A stretch of 64,000 nt of DNA from Protoeuglena noctilucae (Eukaryota): contig OY253681.1 in the NCBI GenBank assembly GCA_958009085.1, positions 744,001 through 808,000 of the forward strand. The letters are read 5' to 3'. Both the position numbers and the translations under genes were made by a program. Under the pieces are notes generated by a model, which was given only the letters and a program-made list of their open reading frames with translations, ran no database searches and was not told the DNA's origin. Within the stretch, counting starts at the first letter, position 1; each line of letters starts with the position of its first letter. Of the stretch, positions 1 through 27,400 are shown in pieces.

Positions 1-91
1 TCTTGGGACGAGTGACGCGCCGCCTGCGCCTGCGAGCGGGCGGGCGAGAGAGGGCTGTTTAGCGGGAAACTGCGGCGAGATATCCTAAATG

Positions 92-4331: not shown

Positions 4332-5076
4332 GGGGCGCAGCGGCGCGGCCCGATCATGGGGCGCAGAGGTAAAGGGACGTTTCAGCTTAGCATAGCCAGT
4401 AATTTCTCGCACATGTTAGCCCCGGCACGCCGGGGCTGGATGACTTTCGGTGCTGAGAGAATGCTTGTCATCATCAACGTCCCGGGAGGGTCGATCGCAA
4501 GCGCGAGCGGCGTGAAATGGCAAAAAGAGTGCGTTGGGGTCACTGGACAGCGATGAAAGGCGCCCGATGCGCCGGGATCTGGTGCAAACGCTGGGGGCCG
4601 CACCTGGGCCGCACGCGCGCGACGGCGGCGGCCCCGCGGTCCCCGGGCGCGCGCGGCGGAACGCTCATGTCTCGAAGCAGCACTCACTCGCAAGAGACTT
4701 CCGGGGAGGGCTGTGTGGAGTCACACAGGGTGTGGCTGGGCCACGGGTAAGAGCCCCCGGAGGGGAATGCGGGGTTTTCCACCCGCTCTCGAGAAATGTG
4801 GAAGTGATGCCACAGCGCACGCGAGGGGCGCTTTTCAGGCCTCCGGCTGATGCGGGCTTGCCCCGGGGCACTCCACGCCAGTGCTTTGAAGCCAGCGCAT
4901 TGAGTTTGAACGACAGGCGTCCCGCTGACGATTCCGTGGACTCAGCGCCGCGCATGAGTCACTCCCTTTTCACATGCGCTGCAGACTGTGCGCGTTGGTG
5001 CCCATGAAATGAAATGAGCTGGGCGTAGCTCCGTGCGTGGTGCAGTTTTGCTGACCAATTCGACGTCCGGAGCCAA

Positions 5077-8000
5077 ATGTCAAGCGAAGGCGTCGGCCCG
5101 GAGCCTCCGGAGCCTTCTCCCGCGCTGGATGGGCAGGGAGAGGGGCAGGGTGCGGACCGTCTCGACGCTTCGAGCGCGGGGGGCGCGCGGAGGGGCGGCA
5201 AGGCCTTCACGGTATCGCGGACGTACGGTTTGAGTCCCTACAGTCCCAAGGTGGCGAGGCACGCTGGTCGCGCGCGCGAGAGAACCACCGTTCGCGTCGC
5301 GCAAACACAGTTGGGCGCTCTTCTGAGCGAACATGGCCGTAGTCGTTCCGCGGTAACATGACATAATACTCGTGCTCTCTCTCGCTTCCCCCAGCCCATC
5401 GTCCCGCCGGCCGACCTGGCGCGCCCGCTCGCCCGCGGCCGCGCGAACCATGGCGTGTCGCAAGCCCAGCAGGCCCCTGCGCCCGCAAGCTCCGCCGAGC
5501 TCTCGCCGACCAAATCTGCGCGGCCCGTCAGGACCCGGTGAGCGCCAGTTGCTGCTCAGAGGCGCTCGCGTTGCGCTGCCAGAGCCACGCCACGCATACT
5601 CGCAACGCGCCTAACCATGTGTCACCACCTCGCTCCATTCCAGTCTCTTCGCCGGCCACGACTCCGCCCCGGAAGACGACGGTCGCGCGGAGAACACGCC
5701 CCGCGCCGCGGACGGCCCCTCCCCGCGCCTCAGGCCAGCGCATGCACCTGTCGCGCCCACGCCCCCCCGCACGCCGGCATCGGCAGGGCCCAGCCCCATG
5801 GCAGGCACGCACCAGCAGGTGAGACATTTGAATATTGTATGTGGAGTTTAAGAGTAAACTGCCCAGTATGGATATGATTGGAACCACCGGCCACCTCACC
5901 CCCGCCGTGCAGGCTCCAACACCCACTGACCCATCACCCACTCACCTCTCTCTCCCCACCTCACCCACCTCACTCACAACCTCTCCCTTCTCAGCCCGTG
6001 TTCCCCCGCCTCCTTCTGGACATCTACCAGTCGATCAACAACATGCACGCCGCAGCTGAGGAGGACATGAGCGGGAGGGCCGTGTCTTATTTGAAAAGGA
6101 CCGCCAAGTGAGAGTTGGGTTGTAATCGAATAATGTCTTAGATGAAAGGACCGATAGCCGGGAGACGGCAACCATATTCATACCTCCATGCCCACATCAC
6201 CACCCCCACATCTCCATTCCCCATGCCCCACCATCCTCCTCACCCCCACATCTCACCCCCTCGTTCTCCCCCCAGCCTGCTCGACCAGGCATCCCGCGAC
6301 ATGCAGCAGCTCGCGGCCGCCTTTGCCTCCCTGCCCCACGCCCACGGCCGCGCGGGCGTCGCGGAGTCTGACGTTTCGGAGTCGGGGGGGGGCGTGTCGT
6401 CGTCAGGGCCGCACCCAGGCGAGTAGGGGGTTGGAGATAGGAATTATGGGAATATGAGCGATTGTGATGGTTACAGATAGAGGCAGGAGTGGTGCAGGCA
6501 AGTGGGTTTTGGAGTTTGTGGCGATGGCTGTCATACGCGCACCGGGTGGGCCTGGAGGGGCAGTGGGTGAGTAGGTGAATGATAGTATGCATCTTCTGCA
6601 GTGAGGTTGTCATCTCCCGTTCTCGTTTCACTCCTCATGTCTTCCCCACTGTTGCAGAGGGCCCCTCTTGGACGGAGGACGCGGCCGGTGTGGGTCTCAG
6701 CAGCAACGCAGACGCGTCCACGCAGCCGCACCCCTGGGGCAACGCAGACCACGTCAGGTGAGGGAATGAATGGATGGGTCGCAAAGCATGCAGATGGGTG
6801 CATGGGTGGTGGTGCACAAGTGGTGGGCAGCCATGAATGGTCACTGCCGCCCGCACCGGCGCTCTGCTCACAGCACGATTTCAACTGCGCAATGTCAACA
6901 GCACAATTACATCCCACCCCTCCCACCCACCCCCCCAGGCGCACCCTGGAGCGTGACTTGCGCAGTCTTAATGAATGATACCATCCGCAGTCTTAACAAA
7001 TGATCGCATCCCAACCCCACCCACCCCCCCAGGCGCACCCTGGAGCGTGACTTGCGTGCCCGCCGGACGCGCGCCGAGGCGACCATGACGCGGCTGGAGA
7101 GGCAGGCGAGTGGATGAGCGCATGGGAGATGGATAGTGCGCGAATGGTGAGATGGCTGTGCATGGACGGGACTGCTACCGGTCATACATCTATCTGCGCT
7201 TTGCTTGCTCATCATGATATGTGCTACATCCCATGGTTGTAATCACCCATCGCCGTCACCCCCAGGCGAGGGCGGAGGAGGCGAGGGTGGCGGCGCGAGC
7301 GAGGGCGTCGGAAAGGGAGAGGGCGGCGGCGGGGCAGGGGAGGGAGCTGGAGCAGCGGCAGGAGCGGTGAGGGATGGGATGTGCATGGGATGGGGTGGGA
7401 TGGGTGCGGTTGAGATGAGAGGGGGTGACATGGGCGCGGTTGAGGTGGAATTGAGAGATGAGACATGAGCATCTCATCTGTTTATTTACACTCATAATAT
7501 CGCCATCGCAGTTCCCGCTCCCTGCGCGAGCGTTACCTGGAGAGCGTGGCGGCCAAGGCGCGTGCGGAGATCGAGAAGGTGTCGGAGGTGCTGTTCATCA
7601 ATAGCCTGCAGAACAGGGAGAGGGAGATGGACATGGAGGAGAGACACAGGCGAGGTTGTGTGGTGATATTTGTACGCGATAGATACTGTGCATGGGACAT
7701 AGATGTGATATGGAAGGGAGATGGACATGGAGTAGAGGCACAGGCAAGGACGATAAGCGATGGTTTGTAATTAATGATAATTAATGATAATTAGAAACAT
7801 TTACAACAATATATGGTAATTTATAAATATCACAATCTTATCTTTCCTTCCATGCAGGGACGCGGAGGCCAGGCGCCGTGACTGGCTGCGGCGGGGGAGG
7901 GACAGGGGGGCGGCAGAGGGGCAGGTGCGAGGGGTGGCAGCGTTGTCATGTCTAATTTATTGTTATTGTATATTGTTACTATTTCTTTGTTTACATCATT

Positions 8001-11000
8001 GTTAATAAGTGTCATTATTGCTTCGTTACCCCCGCAGTTGGCGGATGCGCATGCCGGCCGCCCCCAGGGCCACCGGGATGTGGCGAGGCGGGTGCAGGAG
8101 GAACATGAGAGGGATGTGGAGAGGCGGGGCAGGTGAGGGTGGGAACATGGGAGATGGGGAGAGGACGGGCAGGTGAGGGTGGGTGGATGAGATGGGGCAG
8201 GTGGGAGAGTGAGGGGTGTATGACGAGCCTCTTCACACCCACTGCACTGCACCTTTCCCCACCCCACTGCCACCCTCATCACCACCCCCACTGCCACCCC
8301 CACTACCGCCCATATCACCGTCCCCCATTACCTCCCACCCCCACCCCTTGCAGTGCCCTGGCCCTGCGCCTCCGTCGTGCCGAGCAGAGGCGCATGCAGC
8401 ATCTGCGACTGATACGCGAGAGGGCGGGGGCAGCCGCAGCCGGACCCTTATCCCCCGTCCGACGCTCTGCTTCCCTCAATGCAGCGTCCCTCACCGCATC
8501 CCTCACTGCAACAGCATCTCTCAACACAGCTGCTCCTCTCACCCCTGCCAGTCGCGGGGCTGGGGGGAACGGGGGTGGCAACGCGGTGCATGGGGCGCAT
8601 GGAGTTACTGCGATGGTTACGGGATCGAATCCGGGCAGCCTCTTTAGGGAAAGGGAGGCTGCCACTGGCGACATGAGTGCCCCTGCCCCCGCACCTACCC
8701 CGTCGTTTGCTGCTGGGTATGCCGCACCCAAGCGCCCCGCAGTGCAACGTATGACAAGCGACGAGGACCGTCTCTTTCAGAGCGCCACAAGCACTGCAGC
8801 TGACTACGGCTCAACAACCGGCATCGTGACCCCTCGCGCCACCGCCCCACGCAACCCCTGGCCCCTCGCTGCTCCCAGCGCCGCCCCCCGCACCCCCACT
8901 TGGCTTAATGCGGACAGCGCCGCCCCCGCTGCGCTCGCATGGCATAACGCCGACCCTTATGCTGTCCCCGCCGCCCCCCCGGGCACACCCTGGCAGTTCC
9001 CGACATCCAGGGCGGAGAATCTATCGAATAATATTATTCCATCGACTGATATTATTCCTTTGATTATTCCGTCAAGCGCTGCCCACCACCACCACCACCC
9101 CAGTGGGACTGGGGCAGGTGGCGCGCATAGCGGTGGGTGGGGCATGCATGCTATCCACGCAAGAGCCACCCCCACCCCAGCTCGTTATAACGCATGGGAT
9201 TCCGTCGATGTCTGGGATGATAGAGACGGTCGCGCGTCATCGAGCAATGCCGAGAGCCTCATGTGGGGATTGATGGGGGCGGCAGGGGTGGGCGGTGGTA
9301 CCAACGGCGGCGGCGGGAGTGTGATGGAGAGCGGCGATGGGGATGGGGTGGGGGACGCAGTTGACTCGTGGGGCTCGAATTCGAATTATTTCCATAACGG
9401 GGATAGCCCTGGCGTCAGGTTCGGGGCTCAGTCAGCCCATTACCAGGCGCAGCAAATGGGGTTGGGGGGGCCGGGGTGGCAAGGGGCGGTCACGCCAGCC
9501 CTGTCACCTAGTGTTCTTACTGGCGAGTTAACTAGCCGGGATATGGGGTCGAGGGGGCGATGGGCTTTGGTGGATAGTAGTGAGCGTGCACGGAGGGTGC
9601 GGGCAGGGCGGGGGGGTGGGTCGTGGGTGTGGGGTGGGGGTGAGGATGAGATGGGCGGAGGGGCGGAGATGTGGGGGGTTAGTAGCGGTGTTATAAAAGT
9701 TCCGGGAGGGCAAGCGGGCGCGTCCCTGAGTGTCGCGGAGTGGTGCGGGGGTGGCGGGGCGGGGGCGGGGGTGGGGGTGGGGCGTGAGGTGGTGGGGCGG
9801 GGGGCGGCGAGCGCGTTTGAGGGTGGGGGTGCGCGGGGGGGCAATGCGGGGAATCTGTTTGCATCGGCGTCGTTCAGAGAGCCCGTGACGCATCACAGGC
9901 TGGTTAGGGAGGCGGAAGGGAGAGCGGGTGCGGGTGGTGGTGGTGCGGGTGGGGGTGCGGGTGGTGGTGGTGGTGGTGGTGGTGGTGGTGTGGCATCACA
10001 GCCTGTGGTGTCTGTGGCTAATCGGAAAAAGAATCTGCGGAGACGGACGGCGAGGATTCAAAAGGAGATGGAGAGGTGAGGGGGTGGGGTTGGGTGGATG
10101 GTGGGGGGAGTGGGGGGGTTGGATGGGTGGTGTCGGACAAGTCATACCATTGTCTCTTCACCACCCCAATGCTTCCGCTCACACCACCTCCCCCACTGCA
10201 CCCACTCACCCACGCAACCCCACTCACACCACCCGCAGTCTCAGGCAAGCGTTGGATGCCATGCCGGATCCCCTGGGCTCTTCAGAAAGCCCCCCCGGCC
10301 ACCCTCACGTTTCTGGCACGGTCAGTGTCTCTGGCACCACTGACGTTTCTGGCGGACCCCCCCGCGCCAGTCTGCCGGTCACCGACAGTACCACTCGCAG
10401 TGCCCCATTGGTGCCACCAATGAACACCGCTACTGACACTAAGAGCATGGTCACTGGTAACAATGGGGTTCCTATCATCCCAAATGCCAGCCACAGCCAT
10501 AGCAGTGGCCCTATCACCCTGCCCCACCCACCCTCACCCACCAATCCCCACCCCGCACCCCCCACCGCCCCCCGCCACTCCCCGCCATCCTCGTCAGCTT
10601 TATTACACCCCTGGGCCTTCTTATGGCATGATTTGGAGTCATCATGGGCTATGCCTGCGATGTGGGGAAGCAGTGCGGGGGTAGGGGAGGGTGAGGGGAG
10701 GGGTGGGGTGGCGAGGCGGCGGCGGCGGCGGCGGGCGGGGGCAAAGGGGAGGGCTGGGGATGGGGCGGGGGGAGAGGAGGGGCAGGGAGGAGCAGAGGGG
10801 GGTGGTGTGGGTGCGGGTGCGGGGGCGGGGGCGGGGGCGGGTGCGGGTGCGCGTGCGGGTGCGCGTGCGGATATGAGGGGTGTTGGCAGTGGTGCGGGTG
10901 GGGGTACTGCAAGTGCGGGTCGCGCCGTTACAACTGCGGGTGTCGCCAAACCCCGCAGCAGAGCTAAGCCGGGACCGAGCGGGTCGTTGGCAAGAGCAGA

Positions 11001-11371
11001 CACGCATGCAACTGCCACTGCCACTGCCATTGCTAATACCACTGCCTTCCCCCAACCCCCCCGCCCTCACTTGTCCGTGGGTAAAATGCTTTCGTCTCTC
11101 TGTGCTTTGGAGGAAGTGACGTTGAGGGCCAGGCGCGGGGTGTGGCACTGGGCGGGGGAGTCGGGGGTGTTGGACAAAATGGTGGAGCTGGTGAGGGGGT
11201 ACTGAGGGCTGTAGAACATAATGCAGCTGGTAATTAGATAGATAGTGGTGTAGATGGTGAGATGTGGACAGTGATGGAGGGAGTCGGGGGTGCTGGACCG
11301 AATGGTGGAGTTGGTGAGGGGTTACTGTTGAGGGAGGGGAGTGGTAGTGGGGAGTTGGTGAGAGGTGGACA
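5077..11371 (+). CDS. SCAPER-like coiled-coil protein (multi-exon; 3' end lost in the N gap)
   Basis: Exon segments LLDIYQSINNMHAAAEED...LLDQASRDMQQL, YLESVAAKARAEIEKVSEVLFINSLQNREREMDMEERHR and RKKNLRRRTARIQKEM resemble, from recall, the N-terminal, KVNEI/VxFINxL and KKRAKKI motifs of SCAPER. They are separated by long Ala/Gly/Pro-rich exons. Confidence 0.6.
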
Positions 11372-11571
11372 NNNNNNNNNNNNNNNNNNNNNNNNNNNNN
11401 NNNNNNNNNNNNNNNNNNNNNNNNNNNNNNNNNNNNNNNNNNNNNNNNNNNNNNNNNNNNNNNNNNNNNNNNNNNNNNNNNNNNNNNNNNNNNNNNNNNN
11501 NNNNNNNNNNNNNNNNNNNNNNNNNNNNNNNNNNNNNNNNNNNNNNNNNNNNNNNNNNNNNNNNNNNNNNN
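11372..11571. other. Assembly gap (200 N)
   Basis: Run of exactly 200 N, probably a placeholder length. Confidence 0.99.
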
Positions 11572-11914
11572 GTCCTATGATCCCGGCGTTGTTCATCACA
11601 TCGTCGCGCGTCCCACTTTCAAAATCTGGCCCAGGCTAACGGCCGGTCCGCTTGCCGCTGTCGCCATCTAAGCAAATGACTGTGGGCCGCCGCAGATCGT
11701 GCTTTTCGAGGGAAAGCACGGTGCCAGAGAGTGGCACCGAACAACACCAGACACAACTCCACCACTCCCCGCATCGCCCACCCCTCGCCATTGCACCCCG
11801 TACACTCGCAACTGCATTGCCACTGCCCACACCACCCATCCCGCCACCCATACCCCCCCTCCCTCACAGCTTGATTACCACCCACATCACCCATAGTACC
11901 CCTCCCCCCCCCCC

Positions 11915-14900
11915 TCACAGCTTGACCTTCCGGACGCGCACCGACTGCGGCGTCACCTCCACCAGCTCGTCCGAAACAATGTACTCGATCGCGTCATCCA
12001 GGGACATGTCTGGGCGGGAGGTGAAAGGGGAGAGGTATTAGGCAGTAATATTATTATTTATAATCTTCTTATACGTACTTGTACAATACATCATAATGGT
12101 AACATATCAATATTAGTCCATCATCAAACTATTATTATCATAATAATTAAAGTACATGCCATCAACAGGCCCCCCACTCGCCCTTGGGGGTGTCGAGCAC
12201 GACCGTGGCGTCCTTCCCCGCGGCGCGCATGTTGGTGAGCTGCTTGGCCTTGCATGCGTTTACGCGCAGGTCGCCGTAACGCTGGTGGATGCCGATGACC
12301 TGGGGGATGGGAGACGGGGGGGGGGATGAGATTTGAAGATTGTAGAATGAGGGATGAGATGACTCACTACCCGTCACCAGCGCATCGCTCCTCACTCCAC
12401 CAGCCCCTTCACTAACCCGCAACCACTCACTGCCAAACCAAACCCACGCCACCACTCACAGCCCCTCACCCCTCACCGACAACTCGCCACTACTCACTGC
12501 ACCCACTACACCCCACCCCCCATCCACCCCCCCATAATCTCTCACCTGCCCCTCGTAGATCTTGTCCCCCGGCCTGACGAACAGCACCCCCCTCTCCTGC
12601 ACGCTCTTCAAAGCATAGGCCGTGACCTGCCCCGTCTCGTGCGCGACCAACGACCCGTTCTCCCTCACATTCACGTCCCCACACCAGGGGCCGTAGTGGC
12701 TGAAGTTGGTGTTAAGCACAGCAGTGCCTTTCGTGGCCGTGAGCATGGCGTTCTTGAGGCCGAGCAGGCAGCGGGTGGGGATGGTGTAGGTGACCTGGGG
12801 GGTTGGGGGGGAGGGGGGGGGGTTAGAGGGTAAGTGGGGAGTGGGGGTGGTGGATGAGAGGGTAAGTAGTGGGGTGGGTGAGGACTGGGGATGGAGTAGG
12901 TGACCTTGGGGGGGAGGGGGGTGGGGGTGGTATAGGGTGGGGTGGGTTAGAGGTCGCAAGTAAGTAGAAAGAAGTGGGGTTGGCATGTTGTTGATAATAT
13001 ATATACCAACACATACCAGTATATCGTACATTACACGTACAATCCACCCTCACCCTCTGCGCCCCCTGCGCCCCCGCCACCATGTCCTTCATCTCCCCCT
13101 TCCTTCCCCCCATGAGCGTGGCCACCCCCCCCATGTACTCCTCCGGCACCTCAATCACCGCCTCGTCGTACGGCTCCAGCTTCTCGCCCTTGGGGCCCAA
13201 CTGGGGGGAAGAGCAAGGGGAGGGAAAGTTGAGGGTGAGTTACTATTACATAAATATCATAGTAACAGACTTATAAAAGTCTAGTTTTCATTTATTTACA
13301 AATACTGATTTTTATTTGTATTGAAATCCACACGTCTGCAACGACACCCCCACCACTCATCCCCCCCTTGCCTTGGTGATGACGGTGGGCGCACCCACAC
13401 TGAACTCGTACCCCTCCCTCCTCATGTTCTCAATCAAGATGCCCAAATGCAATGCCCCGCGACCGGAGACCACGAACTGGTCCGCCGTCTCCCCAGGCTC
13501 CACACGCAGCGCCAGGTTGCGCTCCAGCTCACGGTCCAGGCGGTCCTTCAGGTTGCGGGAGGTCTGGGGTTAAAAGGGGGATAGGTGTGAGTTATTAGTG
13601 ATTAGTATTCTATTGTAATATCCAAGAGGTCTTTCAGGTTGCGGGAGGTCTGGGTTGGGTGGGGTGGGTGTTGGGGTGTTTGTAAATGTGTAGTGATGAT
13701 AGTCTATATGAATTGTGTTATAATGCACAGGGTGTTGATGAAATTCCACATTACACATGTCTCGCACCACCAACCCCCCCCCGACCCCCACCCCTTCTCA
13801 CCACGAACTTCCCCTCCTGCCCCGCGAAGGGCGACGTATTGACGGCGAAGGTCATGCGCACCGTGGGCTCCTCCACTTTAATCGCGGGGAGCGGCATGGG
13901 GGACGCGGGGTCGACGATCGTGTCGCCGATCGTCACGTCACCCAGGCCGCAGATGGCGCAGATGTCGCCGGCGGATACGACGTCCACGGGGGACTTCTGG
14001 GGGAGTGGGGGGGGTGGGAGTGGGGTGTTATGACTGTATGTTATATTGTAGTATTACCATGAGTGTTACATTCTCAGATAGTAACTATAATGATACTATT
14101 ATTTACAGATCATTATATGTTTGTCATACTAACAAGCACTACCCTCTCCCTGACTCACCGAGAAGTTGTCGAACACGAAGAGCTCCTGGATGCGCGCCTT
14201 GCGGATGTCGGTGTCCGGCTGCATGACCCCCACGGTGGCGCCCTTGGTGACGGTGCCGCCCGTGACGCGGCCGATCGCGATGCGCCCCTTGTGGTCATCA
14301 TAGTCGATGTTCGTCACCAGCATCTGCAGGGGCTTGTCGATGTCCGCGCGGGGGGGGCTGACCTGGGGGGGAGATGGGGGGGGGGGGGGGGTGGGGGTGT
14401 CGGGAGGGGTGGGGGTGGGGTGGGTTGAGTGGATGCACTCGGTGGGGGTGGCGAGAGATGAGGACAACAGATATCACACGACACCAACACACAGCGGCTC
14501 GAGTGTCAGTCACTCATGTCAAACTCACAACCCATTCAACCACTTAACACTCGCCTTGTCCACGATGGTCTCGAACAGCGGCTCCAGCGTCTCCCGCATG
14601 TCCTCGGGGTCAAACCCAGCGATGCCCTGGAAGCCCGAGGCGTACACCACGGGGAAGTCGCACTGGTCGTCGTTGGCGCCCAGGTCCACGAACAGATCGA
14701 AGACCTGAGTGTGTAAAGGGAGGGGATGGGTGAGTGGTGGGTGAGTGGAGTCGTCACTGTCGTGCTACATCGCCACAACCTGTGGTATATCATCGTCTCT
14801 TATGATAGTGTTCACGCCCGCTGGTCGCGACTGCGCATTCATGAAATACACATGACCCATCTCCTGTTACCGCACAGACACAGTCACTCGCCTCGTTGAG

Positions 14901-15564
14901 CACCCAGTCGGGCCGGGCTGCCGGGCGGTCGATCTTGTTGACCACCACCACCACCTTCTTCTCCAGGTCCAGCGCCTTCTTGAGCACGAACCGCGTCTGC
15001 GGCATCGGGCCCTCCACCGAGTCCACCAGCAGCAGCACGCCGTCGCACATGTTCAAAACACGCTCCACCTCCCCACCGAAGTCCGCGTGGCCGGGCGTGT
15101 CGATGATGTTGATCTGAGGGCCACGGAAAGTGCGCGGATAAGTGAATTATTAGTAAGTATAACGCAGGGAGGCCGCGCAGGGGCGCAGCGGAGGTCCGTG
15201 GGGCAGCTGCGGTGCAAGCGGCAAAGCAATGCGTGCCTTGTTGCCCCGGTAGCGGATGGCCGTGTTTTTGGCGAGAATGGTGATGCCTCGCTCGCGCTCG
15301 AGGTCGTTGGAGTCCATGATGCGCTCCTCCACGCGCTGGTTGGACCGGAAGATGTTGGACTGCTTGAGCATCGCGTCGACCTGGGGACGCAAGCGGAATC
15401 GTCGCCACGTGCGCGGCGCAACGCCGCTGCGCCCGCCCGACAGATGCTACGGAAGAATATCGACGTCGCAAGACCGGCGCGCGGGTCCCGGGCACGCGGA
15501 CGCGCGCGGAGGGGAGCCGTGCCCTAGCGGCGCGTGGCGCAGGGGGGCGCAGGCCGCGCGGCTC

Positions 15565-15613
<49 letters not shown>

Positions 15614-15920
15614 TAATTTGAGACGGGTCCATGGAGGACCCAGGCGCCGCGGGCGCCTCGAGTGCACCGGCGGCCGCCGCGCAGATGAGGTGTGTGGCCC
15701 GCTCCCCGCGGCCCTGGGCCGAGGCCCTCCCGCGCGGAGCTCCCTTGACTTGCACCCGAGCCGACGCGGGGGCTGCGGAGCAGGAGCGGGAGCCACGCTG
15801 GCCGGCGCGGGGCCGAGATGCCTCGTGGCCAGGAGACGCGGCGTCGTCCCCACAGGCGTGAGTTCGCGCAAGCGCCGGGCGCGCAACCCGGCGACGAGGA
15901 ACACAAGCGCATGGGCATGC
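11915..15920 (-). CDS. typA: Translational GTPase TypA/BipA, probably plastid-targeted (SVR3-like); start uncertain
   Basis: [25 protein letters not shown]...[19 protein letters not shown]...|[43 protein letters not shown]...NKID, then [29 protein letters not shown] and [12 protein letters not shown]. Ends [16 protein letters not shown] (11915-11917). Ala/Arg-rich N-terminal extension. Confidence 0.93.
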
Positions 15921-16579
15921 CGAAGATCAGCGCCAGGAAATGCCGTTCGCCCGGGCCGGGCCGTCCCGGACCGATCAGGGGGCTGGGGCCCCGCACCAAC
16001 GCCGTCACGGGCCCTCCTGGACGGGGCGCAAGGCGACTCCGGGACGAGGAACTCACCCAAAATCTGCACGGCGGGCTCGCCGCGCGCACCCAGCGTCCTC
16101 GCGCGGCATGCCACCGAGAAAGAGGTCAGGGGGGCGGCCATCGCGGATCCCTGAGGCAGACGACGACCGGGAGGAAGCTGTGTAACACGCGCGTATTCGT
16201 CGCGCGCGGGAGAGGGCGTGGGGTGTCGTACCGGCGCTTTTTTGACGGCCGGTCTCGTGCCAGTCGTGGTGTTACCCCATGCGTCAGCTGGGCCTGGCCG
16301 GGCTTAGGGCAGAAATGCGTCACACCATAAGCCAAATGTTGGCATGAGATCAGCCGCAGCAAGGCCGTAGCAACCCCAGCATCTCTCTCCGCGTTGCCTC
16401 CCGCCGTGCACAACCTTGCCGCCGCGAAATGCCGATCGCCGGGGGCGCGGACCGTGGCGTGAGGTGCTGTGCTTCCGCGCTCCCACGCCCTGTCGCATGG
16501 CGTGAGGGACGCCTGTGAAGTGCCCCCCTGTGCGTGTCCGCGCGTCGGCCGGCGCAAAGACCGCGTTCTGAGGACGAAG

Positions 16580-19500
16580 ATGGGAATCCTGCGATGGCTG
16601 GCCGTGGCCCTGCTGGCGGGCGCGCTGCGGCCCGCGTTGGCACGGTGGACCTTGTCGACAGGCATCATCGCCCCCGACGCGCCCATATCGTGCAACCCGT
16701 ACAACTTCACGGACTTTAACTTCAATCCCCAACTCTCAAAGGCGAGCTGCCGCCGCAAGCGCGGCCCCTGCCCCGCCCGGGCGATGTCGCGCGGACTACC
16801 GCGGGCCAACATCCCGCAGCCCGCCTCTGCAGCGGGTCCGTGGGCCTCAAGTCAGGTCTGCTGGGCGTTTGCGTGCAAATGACTCACTAGCGGCTCGTTG
16901 CGCGCGTCAGGGTCCTTCGCGCGCCCCGCCTGCAGGGCCGCTTTCCCCCGCGCACGCTCGACTACACTCTCGTCGACCCGCCCGCTTCGACGCTCCAGTC
17001 CCCGCTGCCCTTTGACCAAGATGCGTCGATCGTCATGACCAGCGAGTGCGCCCTCGTCGTGGACACGCCGTCCGGCTCGGCCCACCCCTCGCTGTTTGCG
17101 CACTGGTGCGGCGGAGCGGCGGCAGGCTGGCGCGCTGTCGACAGCGCCATCCGCGCGGATCTTTGTCTGAGTCCATGGTTTCGGCCCTCGCATGGCTCGC
17201 ACGGCCGCGCGTCCGTCGCTCGGGCGCCCTGCGATTTGCGCATCTGCCCCGCCGCCCCCGCAGCCTCTCCGGCTTCTCCGACAACGTGTACGTGACCTTC
17301 GAGGAGATCAATCTCAACCAGTCCCGCGTGGAGAGCGTTTTCAACCTCAAACTGCAGACCACCGTCAACGCGTACCTAGCAGTGAGTTTTTGGGCCTCAA
17401 ACGCCGCGCCCGGCGCCCGGCGGGCGACCGCAGATGTGCTTTGCGTGACTATATATCGTCATCAACAAGAAGCGGTGAGCGCATTTAACGATCCTAGCGC
17501 GAATTTCGCCCCCGCAGGGCTATGTCGGGTCCACGCGCCTTTTGGCCCCCGACCGTCCCGGGATGGGCCAGCTGGCCGCGTACGCCGGCCGCGTGGTGTG
17601 GTCTCAGCTCACAGCCGATGGCGCCGACGCGTACGAGATCGGAGCGTACGATTTCTACGAGAGCCGCTTCATCAGCTCGTCCGCCTTCACCCCGCCCTCC
17701 GGCACGTCCTACACCTCCCCCACGGTGCGCGGACAGCTACGCGTGTTGTTCATACATATTACTCGCTTCGCTCTCATTTCCAGCTTCGAAGACGCCCCCC
17801 TCGCGTCGCCCGCGCCCCCAGGTGTGCGATGACTGGACAGCAATTGTCGCCTTCGACCACGCGACCGGTCTCTCGTCCATTCTGCTGTACGAGTACGACA
17901 CGGACTCCATCGAAGTGCTGTCCCGGGGCGTCCCGGGCCGCAACGCCTTAGCGGCGCGCCTGGCGCCCTTCGGCCGGTTGTGGCCGCTGGTGCACGTGAC
18001 AACGGCCGACATCCGGAGCGGGCCGACGACCACATCGAGCGCGTACTCGTCTCCGGGGGGTAAAATATCGTCCACGACCGACGCGGCGTCGACGGCGGGT
18101 TGGGGCGAGGCGGCGGTGGCGAGCGCGGATCCCGCGCGGCAGGGGTGCCGATTGGTGTGGGTAGAGACGGCAGCCCCGGTCAAGCTGGTTGGCGGGGCGA
18201 ACGTGGTGCCGGACACGCCTACCGGGGGCGTCACGGACGGGATCGTGCGGGTCATGGAGCTGCCCCAGCGCCGCATCCGCACGCCATCGACTCCGGCGGA
18301 GTGGACCGTGCACGCGCAGCCAGGCCCGGGGTTTGGGAAGGGGCTGGATGAGAAGGAGACGGAGATATGGTGAGGGAATGTGTGGGTGAACATTGGAAGG
18401 GGTGTGTGGTTGAATGGCGGTGGGGCGTGCCAGCGGGGGGAGCGGTCGGGATTGGTTAGTGCATACGGTGGGGTGCACTGTGGATGAAGCAGAGGGGGGA
18501 GCGGGGCGCGGGGGACGGCACGTGCCATGGAAGATAGGATGGGATTGCGGTGGAAAGGTCCTGCTCCTTTTCATGTCTTTGTCATTGGCACCCATACAGC
18601 CGCCCCTCGCCCCTTGCCCCAGGCGCCAGGCCGGCACGTCCACCACCGCCCTGACCTACGGCCTGCTGATGGACGTGGCGACGTCAGAGAACGAAATCTT
18701 CTTCCTAATCGCGGACGGGACGGAATCTGTTGCCCCTACGCGCTGAGTCGCCTCACGTCGAGTGGTCGACGACAGCGGGGCGGAGCTCCCCGCCACCGCG
18801 GTGCACTGGCCGCAGACCGACACGGCATCGCAGCTGACATTCGGGGAGGCGTCGGACCAGAACGTGGTGCTGCGTCAGGACCGGGGGGGCGGCGCATCGC
18901 TGACCGCGCTCTTCTCCGTCTCCCAGATCAACCGCGACACGCCCCCGCACTACACGCGCTACCCCTCCATGTGCACGCTCGTCGCGTCCGGCTCCCCCGG
19001 CACCCACGCGGGCGTCTTTCACGACATCGTGCTGTGGGCCGAGGGCGCCGGACGTGCTCTGCAGCTGATGGATGTCAACAAGGACAACGACGAGCTCATG
19101 GACGCGACCGACTGGTTCCCGCTCGATTTCCTCTACGTTTTCGACAACGACAACGACGGCATCGGCAACGCGGCCGACATAGTACCTGCCCACGGGTCGT
19201 GCGTGCAGTCGGACAAGCGCGGCGCGTGCTATAGCGACCTGATGGTCCTGTACCTCGTGTGGGCCGGCTTCGTCATCGTGCTCACGACATCCGTCTTTTT
19301 CATGGCGAGGTGGTACTACCGGCGCAAGCTCATCATACGCGCGGCGGCCAAGGCGCCCCTGGCTAGCTCCAATGGGGTCGCGTCGGGGGGGTCGGGGAGA
19401 ATGGGGCAGGTGAGGGGGGGTGCAGGGTGCGGGTGGTGGTATGGGTGAGGGTAGCAGCATGGGTGAGGGTAGCAGTGTGGGTGTAGGGTGCGGGTGGTTG

Positions 19501-22500
19501 TGTGGGTGGGAGTGAGGGTGAGGGTGGTGGCGGTGTGGGTGAGGGTGGCAGCATGGGTGAGGGTGGTTGTGCGGGTGAGGGTGGCGGTGCGAGTGGGGGT
19601 AGCAGTGTGGGTGAGGGTAGCGGTGTGGGTGAGGTGGCAGTGCAGGTGTCCGCGAATTTCATCACCTTGCCTGACCTTCCAACATCCATGAATCTCACAT
19701 TCTCGTCTCCTCCGCCCGCAGCGCGTCACGGAGGGCTCCGCGCACGGCGCAGGGGCGTCCGCACGGTCCATCACCGCAGCGGTCCTCTCCTCGGGTCGCC
19801 GCGGCAGCGACGGGGGCGGAACCGCTTCGCGCGGATCGCTTATGGGAGACTGGGACGTCGAGTCTATGACCGGCGCGGACGCAAAGACGGAGGCGATCGT
19901 AGCGGATGCTGCCGGAATCAGCGACGTCCGCGCCGTCGAGGGCCCCGACCCCGGACTGCGCCGGCTGGTCGTGCGGACGCAGCTGGTGTCTCTCGTGGGA
20001 CAAATCTTCATGCTTCTCCTCGCGATCGCGTCGCTCCTGACCGCGATCATCCCGTACTTGAGTCTGACGCCCACCTCGCTGCGACTGCTCGAGCGTTTCT
20101 CGTGGTTCGATTTCTTCACCGCTTACATATTCCTCGTCGACATCGTCACGCGATTCGTCACGCGCAACCCGGAGCACACGCCCAACTTCCGGTCGTTCCT
20201 GCGCAAGAACTGGTCGGACTTCCTGGCGCTCTTCACGGACATCCCCGGCCTCACCACCGCCGGAGCGCTGCACTTCCTGGTGTTCACGCGGTTCCGGCAT
20301 CTCTTCAAGATCTTTCGGTGAGGGAGGGGGACTGCTTGCTGCAGCTAGCACGTACTGTTGTCGCTCAACCCTCGCCCTATACTCACCGCCATTGTCATGG
20401 CACATTCTCCCCCACGTGATCCCACCACCCCGCCGCGCACCCTCACAACCCATTACACCCCATGACAACCCTCCCCGCCACCCCACCACCGCCACGTGCC
20501 CTCACAGCCCATTTTACCCCATGATGACCCCCCTACTTCCCAACTTCCTCCCTCACCTCCTTTCACCCCCGCAGCCTCGCGCGCATCCTGAAGATTTTCC
20601 GTGTGGTCCGCGCCTACCGAAATATGACCCGCACCACGGCCGTGCTGGACTTCATGATCAACAAGCCCCACATGTTCATGGGAGTTCTGCTGGTCCTGCT
20701 CATCCTGGCCTTCTCGGCAGGCACTAAGATATTCGAGCAGGGCAGTAACCCCGTGTGGTCGTCCTACGCCAACAACATATGGTTCAGCATAGTCACGGTG
20801 ACGACGATTGGCTACGGTGACATGGCGCCACGCACGATTGGCGCGCGGGTGATGACGGTGCTGATGATGGCGCTGGGGATCGGGCTGGTGGGGCTGCTGA
20901 CGGCCACGGTCATTCGCGGGGTGATGGTGGGGAAGCAGGGGTCCAAGCTGAGCAAGAGGAAGAGGGAGCACCGAAACCGGCTCGAGATGCTCAAGGGCAC
21001 GTGAGTGACTGATGTCTGTGTTATGTCAGTATATCATAGTATAGTTGGTAGTACCAACTAATGCCAATTTCAGCCACCAACCTTCCTCCGACATGAGCAT
21101 GCTGCTGTATATCATTATTCTATACCATGATATTGTCATCGTTCCTCTCTCTCTCAGTTCGGCGCGCATGTGCATGGCCTTCAACCCGCTGGTGGTGTCG
21201 TTCGGGGAGCACCTGGAGCGTTCGATGGGCAAGAAGCTGAGCATGGTGCAGCTGGCCATGCAGCACAGCAGCGCCCAGTACAACATGGTGGCGGGACTGG
21301 ACGAGGACGTCCTGCTGCCCATGGAAGAACTCATGGCTCAGGCGAGGAAGGCGGTGTTGAGTGTGATATATTTCAATAGTTGTATTATATAATATTATAT
21401 TATCTATCGTGCTCGTTCATCGCAGTCATCGACCAAGTTCTCTGCGGCGGGGGAGACGCGAGAGCTGACGGAGGCAGAGGTGAGGGGGGTGGGGTAGTCG
21501 GCGGGGTAGAGGTGACAAGGTGAAGAGGTAAGGGTGGTATAGGCATGCTCATGATGTTGAAGACGACGTGTACCCAACCTAATCCATTTCCCCTTTGCCT
21601 CCAGCAGCCCCAGCACCGCCGCACCCTCACCATCCCACTCCACCCTCACCTCATCCCCTCACCACATCCACTCCCCCTTCCCCCACCACGCAGCGCCAGC
21701 ACAGCTGCACCCTCACCACCCCATCCTCACCTCATCCTCACCTCATTCACTCTCCCTTCCCCCACCCCCCCCAGCGCCAGCACCGCCGCACCCTCACCAG
21801 CCAGCGCCGGGCGCTGCAGACGTTGGTGGAGCGAAGCATGTCCACGGCCATCGTGTCACCGACGGAGAAGCTCAATTACGTGCTGCGGTTCTCCAAGCTG
21901 GACTCCAAGTCCGAGGGAGGCGAGTGATAAGTGGTGTGGATGGGATGGGTGGGATTTGGACGGGTTGCGGTTCGGTGGGTTGGCAGTGAGCGAGGCGGGG
22001 GTGGGAGGGAGGAGGGGCAGGTGTTTCATTGCTGCTGTGGATTGCTGCCGAGGGATGCGTAGAGATATGCTCAGCCGGCGGGTGCTCAACAAGTACTTAG
22101 CCCATCGCAATACACCTCGCTCCTCCAGCACCAGCACTGTAGCACCGTCCCTGATCCCCTCTCCCCCTCCCTCTCCCCTCCCGCAGTGCGCAACTTCGAC
22201 TCGCTCCTCACCGAGCTCCAAGAGGCCATGTTCCCGGCTGTAAAGCCCGAGGACACGTTCGTGGGGCGCGTGCTGGCCCTCTCTCTCGCCATGGACGACG
22301 CCGGGGGCCTCCCGCCGGGCGTGGAGGCCGACCTCACCGACCCGCTGGACCGGAGACTGGTGCGGGTGGAAGAGATCCTCAAGCGACACCAAATCCCCGG
22401 CCGCGACAACTACCACGAGCTGCTTCTGGAGTTGACCACCCTGGCGGTACTCTACGACCGCGTGCAGAACGCGCAGTACTGCCTGCAGGCCGTGCAGTTC

Positions 22501-24125
22501 ATTCCCGAGGCGAGAATGCGAATATTTAGCAATTGCGGGCGCCGCGGCCGGCCGCGATGTCCGCGTTGCGTGCAGGCAACGGTTGTTGCGATGCCAGCCC
22601 CGTGCTGCGACCTCTCCCGCCCTCCCCGTCCTCCCCCGCCCCCGCAGCTGCATTTGCAAACATATATAGCATTGATATTCACCGCTCTTTTCATCGCTCG
22701 CGTCCTCGCAGCTGGAAGCGGAGATGTATCCACCAGCGCCCATCCGTGCCCAGGCGGACGGCGATGTGCCTCAGTTCTCCCGCACCACCCTCGTCCCCGC
22801 CTTTAACTTCGTCAGCCGGCGCACCAACCTCCCGGCCCTCGAGTCCCTCTACCGCGTCCAGGCGAGCGACGTGGAGTGTCACGTCCACGACGCCACGCTC
22901 ATGACCACGCATCGCGCTGTGCTTGGACCGTCGTCGAAAACATATACAATTACCTTGCCGACTTCCACTCCCGTCCTACACCGCGCACGCTCACTTGGAC
23001 TCCGCTCCCCTCACCCCCTCATCCCCACCTCATCCTCGTCATGCTCAACCCCACCCACCTGTCACCCACCCCTCCCTCCCCTCCCAGGCCCGCACCGTCG
23101 CGAGCCGCGCCAAGGACCCGAGATCTCGCCTGGGCATCCAGAGCCAGGCCATGCCTCTTGCAGCCGTTAGCGGCGCCCCCTCCCACGCCGCCTCGACCCC
23201 CGGAGTGACTGGCACCGGGTCAATCCCCACTGACACCCCGCGTAAGAAACGGGGGGTGCTGGGCCTGCGCCCGCTGGGGCATCTGTCCCTGGGCATCAAA
23301 CTGCGCAAGCCGCGCCGGGAAGATTCGTTCATCGTCTCTGAAGCAAAGGTGAAGGTGGCGGGGGGGCAGCCGGAGCTGCGGTGGGGAGAGGGGTCGTCGA
23401 GGGGTGGGGTTGGGGCGTGGGGGAGGGCAAACGGGGGTGACGGGCATGAGGGGTCGCGGGGCGGGCGCGGGAGCGGTGGTGGGTACGGTGGGGATGAGGG
23501 AGAGGGGTCGCAACCGCACGCATCGGCCCAAGCTTCGGTGGTGGCGCGGGGCGGTGGTAGCGGGGGCTGGGAGGGGTTGTCAGAGAGAGGTGTTGGCGCA
23601 GGGAGTGGCGGGAGGGGTGCGGGGGGTGAGGTGGGGGGGAGTGGGAGCGGGGGCTGGGAGGGTGGGGGCGGCGGTGGGAAGCAGAGGGCAGGGAGTGAGG
23701 AGAGGGGGGGGCATCCCCATGGGAGGGTGGTACATGAGCACAGGGGTGGTGAGGGGGATAAGGAGGGTGGCGGGGTGCGGCGGGGTGGGGCTGAGGAGGG
23801 AGGGGGGGGTGGTGGGGGCGGTGCAAGTGCTGGTGCGGGTGTGGGTGCAGGTGGCAGGACGGACACTGGCAGCAGGGAGGGTGTGGATGGGTATGGTGAG
23901 GGAGATGAGGGTGATAGGAGAGATGGTGGCGAGGAGGAGGGTGGGGATGGGGCAGACACGGTGCGTGCGGAGTGGGCTGCTGCTGCGGGGGACCTCTCAA
24001 TTGGTCTGCCTGGCTTTGGCATGTCTGAGGCGATCCTGCGTCACGCGAATGACGGGGCGGGGATGGGCTACCTGAGCGCTCGCAGCTCAGGGCATGAGCA
24101 TGGGGGTGGGAGGGGCGGGGAGTAG
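16580..24125 (+). CDS. Putative chimeric voltage-gated K+ channel: signal peptide + large ectodomain + extra TM + 6-TM Kv core + unrecognised cytosolic tail
   Basis: Signal-like start MGILRWLAVALLAGALRPALA. TM LMVLYLVWAGFVIVLTTSVFFMA followed by RWYYRRK. A phase-0 GT-AG intron at 19410-19721 joins this in frame to S1-S4 (…FKIFR|LARILKIFRVVRAYR) and the pore NIWFSIVTVTTIGYGDMAP. In-frame TGA at 18744-18746. The channel core itself is near certain; the fusion is less so. Confidence 0.75.
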
Positions 24126-24457
24126 CGTGGGAGGCGGCTGGGTGGTGGGTGGGGTGGGAGGTGGCGAGTAGCGTGGGAGAGGGAGCGCTTGCGCCGTTTT
24201 TTAGCAACATTGGAGACCGAGACACTGGGAGTGTTTATCTGGACACCGTAACAGTGCGTGTGCCGTGTTTCCTTTGTTGTTGTTGCAGAGACTTTTGTGT
24301 TATGTGTAGGCGTGGCACGTGGCAGTCGCGTGACATGGCGTGATATGTCGAGACTTTTGAATAGACAGTTGAAGAGTAGTAATAAGAGGTTGGCTTATAT
24401 GCACGGTGCGCTAGCAATCGCGCAATCTTACGTACATAGCACAGTTACACCTGCGCC

Positions 24458-27400
24458 CTAGTCATTCCCACTCTGCCCCCGCGCCCGTTTAGTCCCCGAA
24501 GCACGTTTCCTACCCGCGCCCTGCTTCCTACCCGCACCCTCCCCATTATCAGCCCCATCACCCCTTGCGACATCGCTACCCCCAACACCGCTCCCACCAC
24601 AGCCACCATTTGCACAAGTGTCGCCAAAGCCGAATCGAAAGACATCTGCACCTCCCTCCCCCTCTTCGGAACCCTTTGCTATGCCACTGGCACTCCCACC
24701 GCCTCCCCCAGATTCAAACCCAAACCTGAAGCCACCCCCACCGCCCTCACCAAGCCCCTCCCTGTCCCTCGCCCCTTCGCCACCCTCCCTCCCCACATCC
24801 CCCGCCCCCACCCCTCCCTCTCCCTCTCCCTCACCACCCCGCCCCGCCCCTCCCTCCCCACTCCCACCACCGCCCCTCTCACCCCCGCCATTCGCCCTCG
24901 CTCCCACCCCACTCGCACCACCCCCAGCAAAGAGAGACGCGAGCTTCGGCGCTCTCCCTCTCACTTCCTCCGCCCTCCTCTCCCTCACTGCCGCGTTCCT
25001 TGCCCAAGCATCTGGGTCACGCTCATTGATGGCTGACATCAACCAGTCGCAGAGCAAGGGGCGGTCCGACTGCAAGAAACGGACGGGAGGATATAATATG
25101 GGTTTGATTGATGCGCTTGTGCAATGGGAGAGCTTTGGGTTCGAAAGGTGTGAATCGCAAACACGCTGCCACTCCCGCCCCTCGCGCTCGCTGCCACCCT
25201 CACTGCCACCCCCACTGCTACCCTCACTGTCACCCTCTTATTACCACCATCGCTGCCACCCCCACTGCCACCCTTATCGCCGCCCCCACTGCCACCCCCA
25301 CTGCTACCCTCACTGCCACCCTCACCTCTCCATACTAACACCACAGCATACCACACAGCATGCCTTCACCTCCGGGCACCCCGAAACGAGATCCGGGTCC
25401 CTGGTCTCGAGCACTCGCATCACACGATCGAGATTGGCAGAAGAAACGAAGTTCTGGGTCACGGCGATGGAGGTGCCGGGGTCGATGTTCATGACGCAGT
25501 GCCACCAGCCGGACGGGACGAAGACGACATCACCGGGGGAGCAGATGCACTGTGGAGAGAGTGAGGGTGAGGGTGAGGGTGAGGGTGAAAGGGAGGGTTA
25601 GAGTGGTGATAAGGGTGGCAATGTGGGTGAGGGTGATTGCAAGGGTGGCAGTAAAGGTGACAGCAAGGACGAGTGTGCAAGTAGAGCAGTGTTTGAACCA
25701 CATCACGCGAAGCAATCAACAGATTGTCGCTACTAAGCACCATGCATTCGCAAAGTAGCTCGCCTCGAATGGCCTCACGGGTCCCTTCTTCGTTTCCACA
25801 TAGAACTTGTCGAACCACTCCATGAGGCTCAGAGGGGTGGCCACCGTGGCACCGCCCTCGCTCACGCGCACGCCCGGGGGGGTGTGGTTCGGAGGGTAGA
25901 GCACCCACTTCTTCCGGCCGCGGACCTGTGTTGTTGTAGGAGATGAGCGGATGGCACCGGCGATGGTGATGGGTTGCATCTATCTGTCCATGTATGTCAA
26001 CCTCTCACCGGCGCGTTCCACGCAACGTGCTATCATCGCATAGCACAATCTCGCTCCCTCACCGGTGCGTTCCATGCGCTGGTGCCGTTGGGATCGACGT
26101 GGAAGGAGGACCCACTGCGCTGCCCGCCCACGATGAGCCATCGGTAATCGGGGCGACGGTCGCTCAGCAGAGAGAAGAGGTCCTCGGAAAATACACGGGG
26201 GACCTGGACGAAGTGACGAGGATCACATTGCATGAGGAATAGAACCCTAGCACCACATCATACGGCAGCGGTGGTAACAACGGCAGTCGCGGCAAAGATT
26301 GCATCGCTGCGCGACATCCACGAGGTGCAGAGGACCTGGTTGCATGCAATAACAGTTTCGTTATACAATTCCCACTCTCCCCGCACCTGGAAGTCAGCAG
26401 CCAGCTCGGGCGCCGTCTCTGCGAACGTCTTGTCGAACAAGTAGAGCGGCTGCTCGTCCCGGTTCTGCGCGCGACGCCGCAATGCGTTTGTTTATCATAA
26501 CACTTCGATTATGCGCGAGATGCATGGCGCAGCGAAGGCTTATTGAGGTGTCAGGCTATTGATGCTCGCCTCTTGCAGGTACCGCTTGTACTCGTCCCAG
26601 GTGGTCGGGGCGTTGGACACGATGACGGGCTTGCCCCGGAAGGCCTTTCCGAGGTAGCCGTCCGTCCACTTGCGCAGGGCAGGCCAATCGCGGGTGGCGC
26701 CCTGGGTGCACGTGCCGGGGTGCATGCGTGTCATTTCCAGGCAAAATGGTAAAGCTACCAAATCCAAGAGCTTCTCAGAAACCCATGTGCAAGAAGGCAT
26801 TGATCATGCACGCCCCGTTCATCTATGCCACGCCGCAAAGTCCAAACTCGCCTCGATGACGACTGGCCGGTTGCGGGCCTCAAATCGCTCGCGGAAGCCC
26901 TCCACGTCCTTTGCCGCGATGCGGGGCATGTTATCGACATCCAGCCACGCCGGGTCAATCTGCGGGAAGGGCTCTGCCGATGTTAGGATGGCGCTGACGC
27001 AAAGTGCAGCTGCACGCGTTTTGATGCGATGCGCCCCTCGCCTCCCTGTGAGCGTACATCCAGGGCTCGTAAAGAACGTCGGAGAAGACGCTGCGCAGGA
27101 CGCGGGGCCTGCAAAACGGGAAAACGCAGCGCACATGAGATCTGAGTGTGCCCTGAGGTACAAAGGGCGGATTCAGTCGCCGGGCCCCAGAAAGCGAGCC
27201 CTGCTTATAAATGGGGTGCCAGTAAGATTGACGGCACCTCATGCAGAGAATTGCACTTTCAGAAGCGCAGGCAGTCACCGCAGCGCCTGGTCGGAGGAGC
27301 GGGGACGGAACTGGGACGGGTTGGACCACCGCGCATACGTCTCGCGCCATGAGAATCGGAATTGGAGGACACCCTCGCTCGCACGAAGCGCCAGCGCGCG

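Follow-up and report, generated by a model that had tools for sequence, protein, structure and literature searches.

The 64,000-nucleotide stretch analysed here (hereafter the window; positions 744,001 to 808,000 of contig OY253681.1 in the Protoeuglena noctilucae assembly GCA_958009085.1) carries on its + strand a single gene of at least 14 exons, extending from ~16508 to ~24125 as judged from RNA contigs, reading frame and homology. The gene specifies, in this order, a signal-peptide-like start, a large ectodomain, an extra transmembrane (TM) helix (TM0) and a six-transmembrane (6TM) core of the voltage-gated K+ (Kv) channel type, and an in-frame TGA lies within the ectodomain part. A first-pass annotation, made from the sequence alone, had proposed this layout for 16580 to 21001. 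The layout holds at the RNA level, on one transcript; the proposed gene end at 21001 does not, as RNA joints extend the transcript over exons 9-12, after which the frame runs on to a TAG at 24123-24125. We consider it highly probable that the locus is one multi-exon gene belonging to a widespread, apparently undescribed family of eukaryotic voltage-gated-type K+ channels.

The RNA evidence consisted of contigs from four marine metatranscriptome runs (X1 to X4; one study, three samples), which contain 27-55% of the words of the stretch, about the exon share. These contigs were mapped over positions 16000-22600 of the window, and exons beyond 22600 rest on frame and homology. mRNA of the channel gene was detected in three natural samples from this study. 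Ten splice joints, each found in two to three runs, place exons 1-6 and 7-12, all in a single frame, and the introns are short in a window with a GC content of 0.53-0.71 per 2 kb. The 5′ untranslated region spans at least 16508..16579, the X1 record 1 contig beginning at 16508, with no upstream in-frame ATG. Exon 1 (16580..16741; joint 16739>16934 in three runs) starts at ATG 16580 with the signal-peptide-like segment. Exons 2 (16936..17105), 3 (17264..17381) and 4 (17518..17724), placed by RNA joints and frame, continue the ectodomain, and exon 5 (17822..18369), placed likewise, encodes propeller blades and is colinear with two green algal proteins, P0004 (CAG9467358.1, Pedinophyceae sp. YPF-701, 1445 aa) and P0001 (PPROV_000675300, Pycnococcus provasolii, 1421 aa). 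Exon 6 (18623..19409; joint 18368>18622 in three runs; contig coverage 18622-19363) carries the last blades, two Asp-rich loops, a Cys pair, TM0 and a basic motif.

The passage from ectodomain to channel lies at the exon 6/exon 7 junction, for which the first-pass annotation had named a phase 0 donor, CAG/GTGAGG with its GT at 19410, and an acceptor, CCGCAG/CGC. Both are present; the donor follows 1992 cumulative coding nucleotides, and exon 7 opens at 19722. The junction 19409/19722 is absent from the table of joints and was detected on two contigs from two samples (X1 and X2). Contigs X1 record 2 and X2 record 7 both begin at 19718 and carry 12 and 17 extra letters, respectively, which together with the shared GCAG are the final 16 (X1) and 21 (X2) bases of exon 6. 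This 21-mer has a single occurrence in the window (19389-19409), and 100 shuffles gave no match. As these loose ends match the end of exon 6 exactly, spliced exon 6-exon 7 molecules therefore exist in two samples. The intervening GT..AG intron 6 (19410..19721) is mostly filled by an 18-nt tandem repeat (19425-19642, 11.9 copies) that begins at the donor, and each repeat unit holds a GGTGAG donor-like site.

The hydrophobic, signal-like start reported by the first-pass annotation was found by hydropathy at residues 3-21 of a signal-peptide-like segment comprising residues 1-21 (16580-16642), and the beta-rich ectodomain, previously put at about 600 aa, measures 586 aa. It is followed by TM0 (19239..19307, residues 608-630, hydropathy 2.23) and the basic juxtamembrane motif RWYYRRK (19308..19328), which is likely to lie on the cytosolic side of TM0 and has a similar counterpart in P0004; helix and motif stand as first described. 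No Pfam family matched the ectodomain exons, and a sequence search of PDB gave no match for the ectodomain or for the C-terminal domain. The fold was modelled on residues 1-623 of P0004, which is 38.8% identical to our gene model, using 27 relatives as the alignment. The prediction (predicted local distance difference test score (pLDDT) 77.9, predicted template modelling score 0.79) comprises a signal helix, strands over residues 112-533, an irregular but confident stretch, and TM0 at 588-622. The modelled P0004 ectodomain is a seven-bladed beta-propeller with 2gop_B as its top match (Z 19.3, root mean square deviation 3.8, 280 residues), and Foldseek agreed with the propeller fold. There were 629 chains at Z >= 8, mostly propellers, and Sec12, RbBP5, a Burkholderia lectin, S9-peptidase propellers and the ACR4/CR4 receptor-kinase ectodomain all fell within ~2.5 Z of 2gop_B. 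On this model the propeller is generic, and no specific propeller family can be named. A full-length model of another relative, P0029 (pLDDT 67.3), gave the same domain order, with TM0 at 538-593 and the C-terminal domain modelled as helices only; Foldseek with this model retrieved propellers on the one hand and KCNQ/Kv4 channels on the other, and no chain combining the two.

In the stretch from the propeller to TM0, columns of Asp, Phe and Pro are invariant among the homologues, and two of Cys are nearly so. In the Protoeuglena gene, these correspond to two Asp-rich loops (19071..19178, residues 552-587) resembling thrombospondin (TSP) type 3 repeats and to a Cys pair (19200..19229, residues 595 and 604) just outside TM0. 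The Ca2+-binding TSP type 3 repeat has the pattern DxDxDGxxDxxD. Query residues 150-185 of exon 6 drew ~77 multi-repeat proteins, and three of the four tested carried TSP_3 or TSP3_bac. The earlier idea of extracellular control by Ca2+ thus finds some support in these invariant TSP3-like loops, as read from the alignments.

The channel part opens in frame at the exon 7 acceptor, and both S1-S4 and the TVTTIGYGD filter announced by the first-pass annotation are present. Exon 7 (19722..20317; contigs 19718-20316 in X1 and X2) encodes the cytosolic linker between TM0 and S1, which is ~120 aa long and variable across the family, followed by S1 (~19983-20051), S2 (~20097-20162), S3 (~20208-20252), all placed by hydropathy, and the start of S4. 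Exon 8 (20575..21000; joint 20316>20574) encodes the rest of S4, which is split by intron 7 (~20274 in exon 7 to ~20620 in exon 8), S5 (~20675-20737), the pore helix, the filter (20795-20821) and S6 (~20843-20914). Exon 8 matched Ion_trans_2 (PF07885) with 57.3 bits (cut-off 22.5) and Ion_trans (PF00520) with 43.5 bits (cut-off 25); exon 7 alone matched Ion_trans over residues 95-198 with 19.3 bits, under the cut-off since intron 7 divides the domain. S4 has nine basic positions in register, at every third residue (eight Arg/Lys and one His, residues 854-878). The filter is a canonical T-x-G-Y-G-D, whose G, Y, G and D are near-invariant in the family alignment, and the acidic residues of S2 and S3 are conserved, with W, D, F, D and R columns invariant or nearly so. 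In PDB, the core's sequence matches were TOK1, KcsA, Kv4.2, Kv1.2 and KCNQ1 (E 1e-7 to 1e-11), and its Foldseek matches were KCNQ4, Kv4.2, KCNQ2 and MlotiK.

Downstream of the pore, the transcript continues through exon 9 (21158..21341), a conserved cytosolic C-terminal region by its RNA joints and its alignment with P0001 and P0004, exon 10 (21426..21479; RNA joints) and exon 11 (21775..21919; joint 21917>22185 in three runs) to exon 12 (22187..22509), where a conserved helical C-terminal domain is encoded and contigs extend to 22509 with a loose end matching 22712. Exon 13 (22712..22861) was placed by this loose-end match, and the exon 13/14 joint is spanned by the frame and by the colinear P0004 alignment, which reaches model residue 1313. 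Exon 14 (23088..24125) is an open frame ending in a Gly-rich tail at TAG 24123-24125. The repeat-rich tail from 23350 to 24122 has a GC content at third codon positions (GC3) of only 0.70 and may hide an intron, leaving the C-terminus uncertain. A TGA at 21925, after exon 11, is intronic and unused. No Pfam family matched the C-terminal exons, so the helical domain has no named family, and the best score for exon 12 in ESM Atlas (0.85) lay below the lead threshold. BTB/T1, RCK and cNMP_binding gave no Pfam match at E <= 1 on the exons or on P0004, P0001 and P0029. Five of the 13 introns have GC donors (GCGAG...), at 16742, 21342, 21920, 22510 and, by inference, 22862, the donors of exons 1, 9, 11, 12 and 13. 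These may be why protein collections hold no full-length model of the locus. A study of Emiliania huxleyi reported 56% GC-AG junctions, a share unusual among genomes (PMC4028052). The GC donors of the present gene resemble that pattern and, with the GC content of the window, might hint at haptophyte-like DNA.

The same combination of parts was found in other organisms. The best relative, P0004, aligned in one BLASTP high-scoring segment pair from model residue 20 to 1313 (P0004 43-1298, 38.8% identity), and P0001, the one long protein returned by the exon 7 search, likewise in one pair from 41 to 1277 (P0001 170-1308, 30% identity, E ~1e-166). An exhaustive search with exon 6 returned 119 hits, 42 of them matching in a single stretch. 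The others matched repeatedly within query residues ~130-220 only (mostly 150-185) and are TSP3-repeat proteins on the basis of the three in four tested. The single-stretch hits comprised 26 proteins of at least 800 aa and 16 fragments (59-703 aa). In 24 of the 26 long relatives, Ion_trans or Ion_trans_2 lies ~50-390 aa (mostly 60-140) downstream of the ectodomain/TM0 match. Members include three proteins of the glaucophyte Cyanophora paradoxa, two of Diplonema papillatum (KAJ9471647.1 and KAJ9451282.1, automatically named 'putative potassium channel protein 2' and 'Shal'), and others from the diplonemids Namystynia and Artemidia, the kinetoplastid Papus and a transcriptome assembly with complete open reading frames (ORFs). 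With green algae, a glaucophyte, diplonemids and a kinetoplastid all represented, the distribution suggests that the family is either old or has spread widely. The first-pass annotation had called for a search of other proteomes and would have given up the fusion had homologues always been two separate genes; they occur instead as conserved single proteins. Judged by these alignments, the fusion belongs to the family as a conserved trait and did not arise by chance at this locus alone; the architecture is genuine, it is transcribed, and distantly related eukaryotes have conserved it.

The two exceptions among the long relatives, P0019 (1181 aa) and P0061 (882 aa), have the membrane-proximal part of the ectodomain and TM0 with no channel domain, and P0019 shows weak TPR-like matches in its place. 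The ectodomain-TM0 module may also be paired with other cytosolic partners. One Cyanophora protein, P0009 (1955 aa), carries a Peptidase_M13 fragment at 2-138, before the ectodomain, and is probably a merged gene model. A scan of JGI metagenomes with exon 6 gave two loci, both matching the Asp-loop motif only, and no orthologue.

Several observations weigh against an intact receptor-channel made from this locus as the first-pass annotation had inferred, and those on the junction and the topology are given first. Among the contigs listed, none crosses the exon 6/exon 7 junction with long flanking sequence; upstream contigs end at 19343 or 19363, and the G-rich segment 19364-19388 is in no listed contig, a gap that probably reflects an assembly break. 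Run X4 contains unspliced pieces across 19622-19938, including the exon 7 acceptor. Homologues, and not the spliced protein of the window, served for modelling the propeller fold and the TM0 helix. The signal-like start, the hydropathy profile and the basic cluster after TM0 are compatible with an outside N-terminus (N-out) and seven TM helices, a topology read from hydropathy and charge only. Pfam TSP_3 (PF02412/PF18884) gave no match at E <= 1 on exon 6, P0004, P0001 or P0029.

The frame itself is broken by the TGA at 18744-18746, the sole stop in the frame 16580-24122, at model residue 443, within a propeller loop of variable sequence, so that readthrough is needed for the full-length product; going by the P0004 model, the TGA falls ~two blades before the propeller end. 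It is present in the X1 record 1 and X2 record 6 contigs with 0 differing letters, and every database ORF of exon 6 implies it. ORFs ending at the TGA (P0025 and P0125) came from 2 + 11 = 13 contigs of environmental and other assemblies, and ORFs starting just past it (P0002, P0121 and P0122) from 12 + 1 + 1 = 14. No uninterrupted ORF of high identity was found in the collection, a search among entries of near length giving only the locus's own ORF cluster and P0003. Rfam detected no selenocysteine insertion sequence (SECIS) at the gathering score over the whole window or at E <= 10 over 18600-25200, and inspection of 24100-25000 by hand gave no ATGA core and no SECIS-like fold. RNA after the UGA folds no better than shuffles (z = -0.62). 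With no SECIS and no significant RNA structure, recoding thus lacks positive evidence. Two ways of splicing out the TGA, by a 36-nt in-frame GC..AG mini-intron or by an alternative in-frame acceptor at 18776, were considered and rejected: the X1 and X2 contigs cross 18622-19343 unjoined, and P0003 retains the segment of the mini-intron as coding. A scan of the window at loose settings found five TGA, three TAA and one TAG flanked by coding-like GC3, several of them antisense, with no sign of a changed code.

The sequence on either side of the TGA carries a coding signal. Before and after the stop, GC3 in this frame lies at 0.87-0.97, falling to 0.67-0.73 in its immediate vicinity, and exons 7-13 retain 0.84-0.92. 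About 1190 codons are open after the TGA, and the eight downstream introns splice in frame. Three haplotypes (P0002, P0121 and P0122) are identical over 215 codons past the TGA and differ in the next 12, intron-derived codons. At the TGA site, homologues have Arg (P0003), Asn (P0011), Gln (P0009) or a gap (P0004 and P0001), never Cys, and their reading frames are uninterrupted at this position. The downstream part still appears constrained, leaving readthrough or very recent loss as the main options; the locus is possibly recoded or a recent pseudogene. The chances that a full-length protein is made at a useful level seem roughly balanced.

The strongest alternative is that the locus is a transcribed pseudogene or null allele, in which the UGA ends translation after 442 residues and an incomplete propeller, the receptor-channel being lost or in the course of loss here while the family is real elsewhere. 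We take this possibility seriously while leaning away from it. It would account for the presence of the TGA in the RNA contigs and its implication by all database ORFs of exon 6, and for the lack of a SECIS or a readthrough-type RNA structure in the searches above; a change from CGA to TGA takes one transition, the Arg of P0003 being seen as a residue and not as a codon, and a protein cut after about blade 5, as placed from the strands of the P0004 model, would be unlikely to fold. Against it, the open codons, the in-frame introns and the GC3 of exons 7-13 are all kept, and the three haplotypes show no amino-acid change in 215 post-TGA codons even though the adjoining intron differs. Moreover, mRNA is present in three natural samples, and the exhaustive exon 6 search found no close intact paralogue, the next hit (P0003) being 46% identical.

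Alternatively, one mRNA might serve two products, a secreted N-terminal fragment ending at the UGA and a shorter, BK-like channel (short outside N-terminus, TM0 and Kv core) started at a downstream Met. In-frame Met codons do follow the TGA, a possible start lying shortly ahead of the TSP3-like loops, the parts of the ectodomain with the highest conservation (the Asp loops, the Cys pair and TM0) are all encoded after it, and the X1 word depth is 22.6 for the downstream contig vs 12.6 for the upstream one, a measure that cannot rank the two parts. We nevertheless judge such split use improbable. The downstream product would have no signal peptide, the coding signal (GC3 0.90-0.97) and the conservation with P0003 begin right after the TGA, ~70 codons before the first Met, and the RNA contigs show no start there; reinitiation after an ORF of 442 codons is not expected in eukaryotes. 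For selenocysteine at the UGA speaks the haptophyte-like look of the GC-AG introns, such algae having many selenoproteins; this reading is nevertheless very improbable, given the negative SECIS searches, the absence of Cys among the residues of homologues and the position in a variable surface loop rather than a redox motif. Equally hard to credit is a reading as two independent tandem genes, one for a beta-rich protein, secreted or anchored, and the other for a Kv channel: the missing entry in the joint table, the upstream contig ends and the unspliced X4 piece over the exon 7 acceptor would suit it, but it is already contradicted by the X1 and X2 loose ends joining the exact end of exon 6 to 19722, by the in-frame phase 0 junction and by the union of both parts in one protein in 24 of the 26 long relatives and in P0001, several of these proteins being transcriptome ORFs.

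Some further features of the region were recorded. An adjacent transcript at 15743-16220 has an X1 contig depth of 68, vs ~12 for the channel gene, and ends or splices at 16057, with a loose end leading to 15743. X4 has unspliced pieces over introns at 17467-17955, 19536-19938, 21582-21698 and 21996-22285, some only 90-95% alike, which may represent DNA carry-over, pre-mRNA or another strain. X2 contigs diverge from the window at 18636 and 20108 with 85 and 55 foreign letters, respectively. The loose ends at 18636, 20108 and 21582 match nowhere in the window and are regarded as chimeric or foreign; those at 18636 and 20108 may be chimeric contigs or the transcript of a related gene from elsewhere. 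Intron 10 contains a C-rich 81-nt repeat (21605-21799), and a 12-nt repeat (11.4 copies, 25187-25325) lies 3′ of the gene.

Returning to the receptor-channel, the transcript structure, the colinear architecture, the propeller fold of a homologue and the K+ channel hallmarks allow a model to be outlined, in which the topology, the assembly into tetramers and control by a ligand or by Ca2+ are inferred. In the family, one polypeptide comprises, in order, a signal peptide, a propeller of ~450-500 aa, the two TSP3-like loops, the Cys pair, TM0 with its basic cluster, the linker of ~120 aa, the 6TM core with a long S4 and the T-x-G-Y-G-D filter, and a helical cytosolic C-terminal domain. It would assemble as a tetrameric voltage-gated K+ channel, N-out, with TM0 preceding S1-S6. 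The propeller and TM0 would act as a covalently attached auxiliary subunit or receptor arm, placing four ectodomains around the pore, and the membrane-proximal loops or the propeller might bind Ca2+ or a surface ligand that modulates gating or anchors the channel. In this genome, the UGA at codon 443 interrupts the frame once, and the full-length protein depends on readthrough. A more specific version, in which the family forms true receptor-channels whose propeller and Ca2+-type loops sense external Ca2+, a surface ligand or a cell covering and act through TM0 on the voltage sensor, with the fixed UGA in a tolerant loop as a programmed readthrough site setting dosage, is rather unlikely as a whole.

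The first-pass annotation knew of no described channel with this layout. In this it stands as far as the literature goes, in which we found no description of a K+ channel with a large N-terminal ectodomain (supplements and subscription journals being outside the scope of the search); members of the family are, however, already deposited in NCBI and EukProt under generic names, 'hypothetical' among them. By term search, the words 'extracellular', 'N-terminal' and 'signal peptide' are absent from a survey of Kv/CNBD channel diversity (PMC7576140). In this family, nature provides a means of testing how a voltage sensor can be tuned by an extracellular domain on a single-helix tether, and a possible route by which surface or Ca2+ cues are coupled to membrane potential in unicellular plankton. 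A smaller puzzle of its own, recoding vs gene loss, is posed by an expressed gene that is intact but for one fixed in-frame UGA.

Among known systems, the closest relatives are the family members themselves: P0001, P0004 and the Diplonema and EukProt proteins have the same colinear domain order, and the closest two align over nearly the whole length. Like the Shaker (Kv1-4), KCNQ and cyclic nucleotide-binding domain (CNBD)/EAG/plant Shaker channels, the protein has a 6TM core, an S4 charge array and a TxGYGD filter; unlike them, it has no T1, CNBD or KCNQ helices A-D by Pfam, and its N-terminus is probably extracellular. The extracellular seven-bladed propellers of the 'crinkly' receptor kinase ACR4/CR4 and of bacterial lectins (7a0k, 7a0j, 6gxr and 5c9o) resemble the ectodomain model with Z 16.5-18.0, but these scores are no better than those of dozens of unrelated intracellular WD40 proteins and identity is 6-10%, so that only the fold is in common. 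By the textbook account, channels of the Kv type keep the N-terminus in the cytosol, BK being the exception, and a figure legend in a review gives KCa1.1 as the sole exception among K+ channels with its N-terminus outside (PMC3283738); the present family would add a folded ectodomain of ~590 aa and an S0-like helix. As in BK/Slo1, an extra N-terminal helix (S0) precedes S1-S6, which would place the N-terminus outside. The outside N-terminus of BK is short, whereas here a folded ectodomain of 586 aa lies behind a signal peptide, RCK domains are absent by Pfam, and ~120 aa separate TM0 from S1.

Two further comparisons concern auxiliary subunits. BK gamma (LRRC26) and CatSper beta/gamma/delta/epsilon consist of a signal peptide, a folded ectodomain, one TM helix and a basic stretch, and sit on a 6TM channel; they are separate polypeptides, and the LRRC26 ectodomain is made of leucine-rich repeats and is not a propeller. 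Kv4 channels carry DPP6/DPP10 auxiliary subunits, which likewise put a propeller on a single TM helix beside a Kv voltage sensor. Kv4.2 is among the best matches of the core, and the structural match lists included 7e8e (Kv4.2-DPP6S-KChIP1) and the S9-family propellers of DPP8/9 and DPP4. DPP6 differs in being a separate type II protein (N-terminus inside) with a hydrolase-fold domain, whereas the arm described here would be type I and fused in cis, and the two share only the generic propeller fold, with no sequence relationship shown. On the more specific receptor-channel version above, protists would combine within one polypeptide what animals assemble from separate chains with DPP6, LRRC26 or CatSper subunits.

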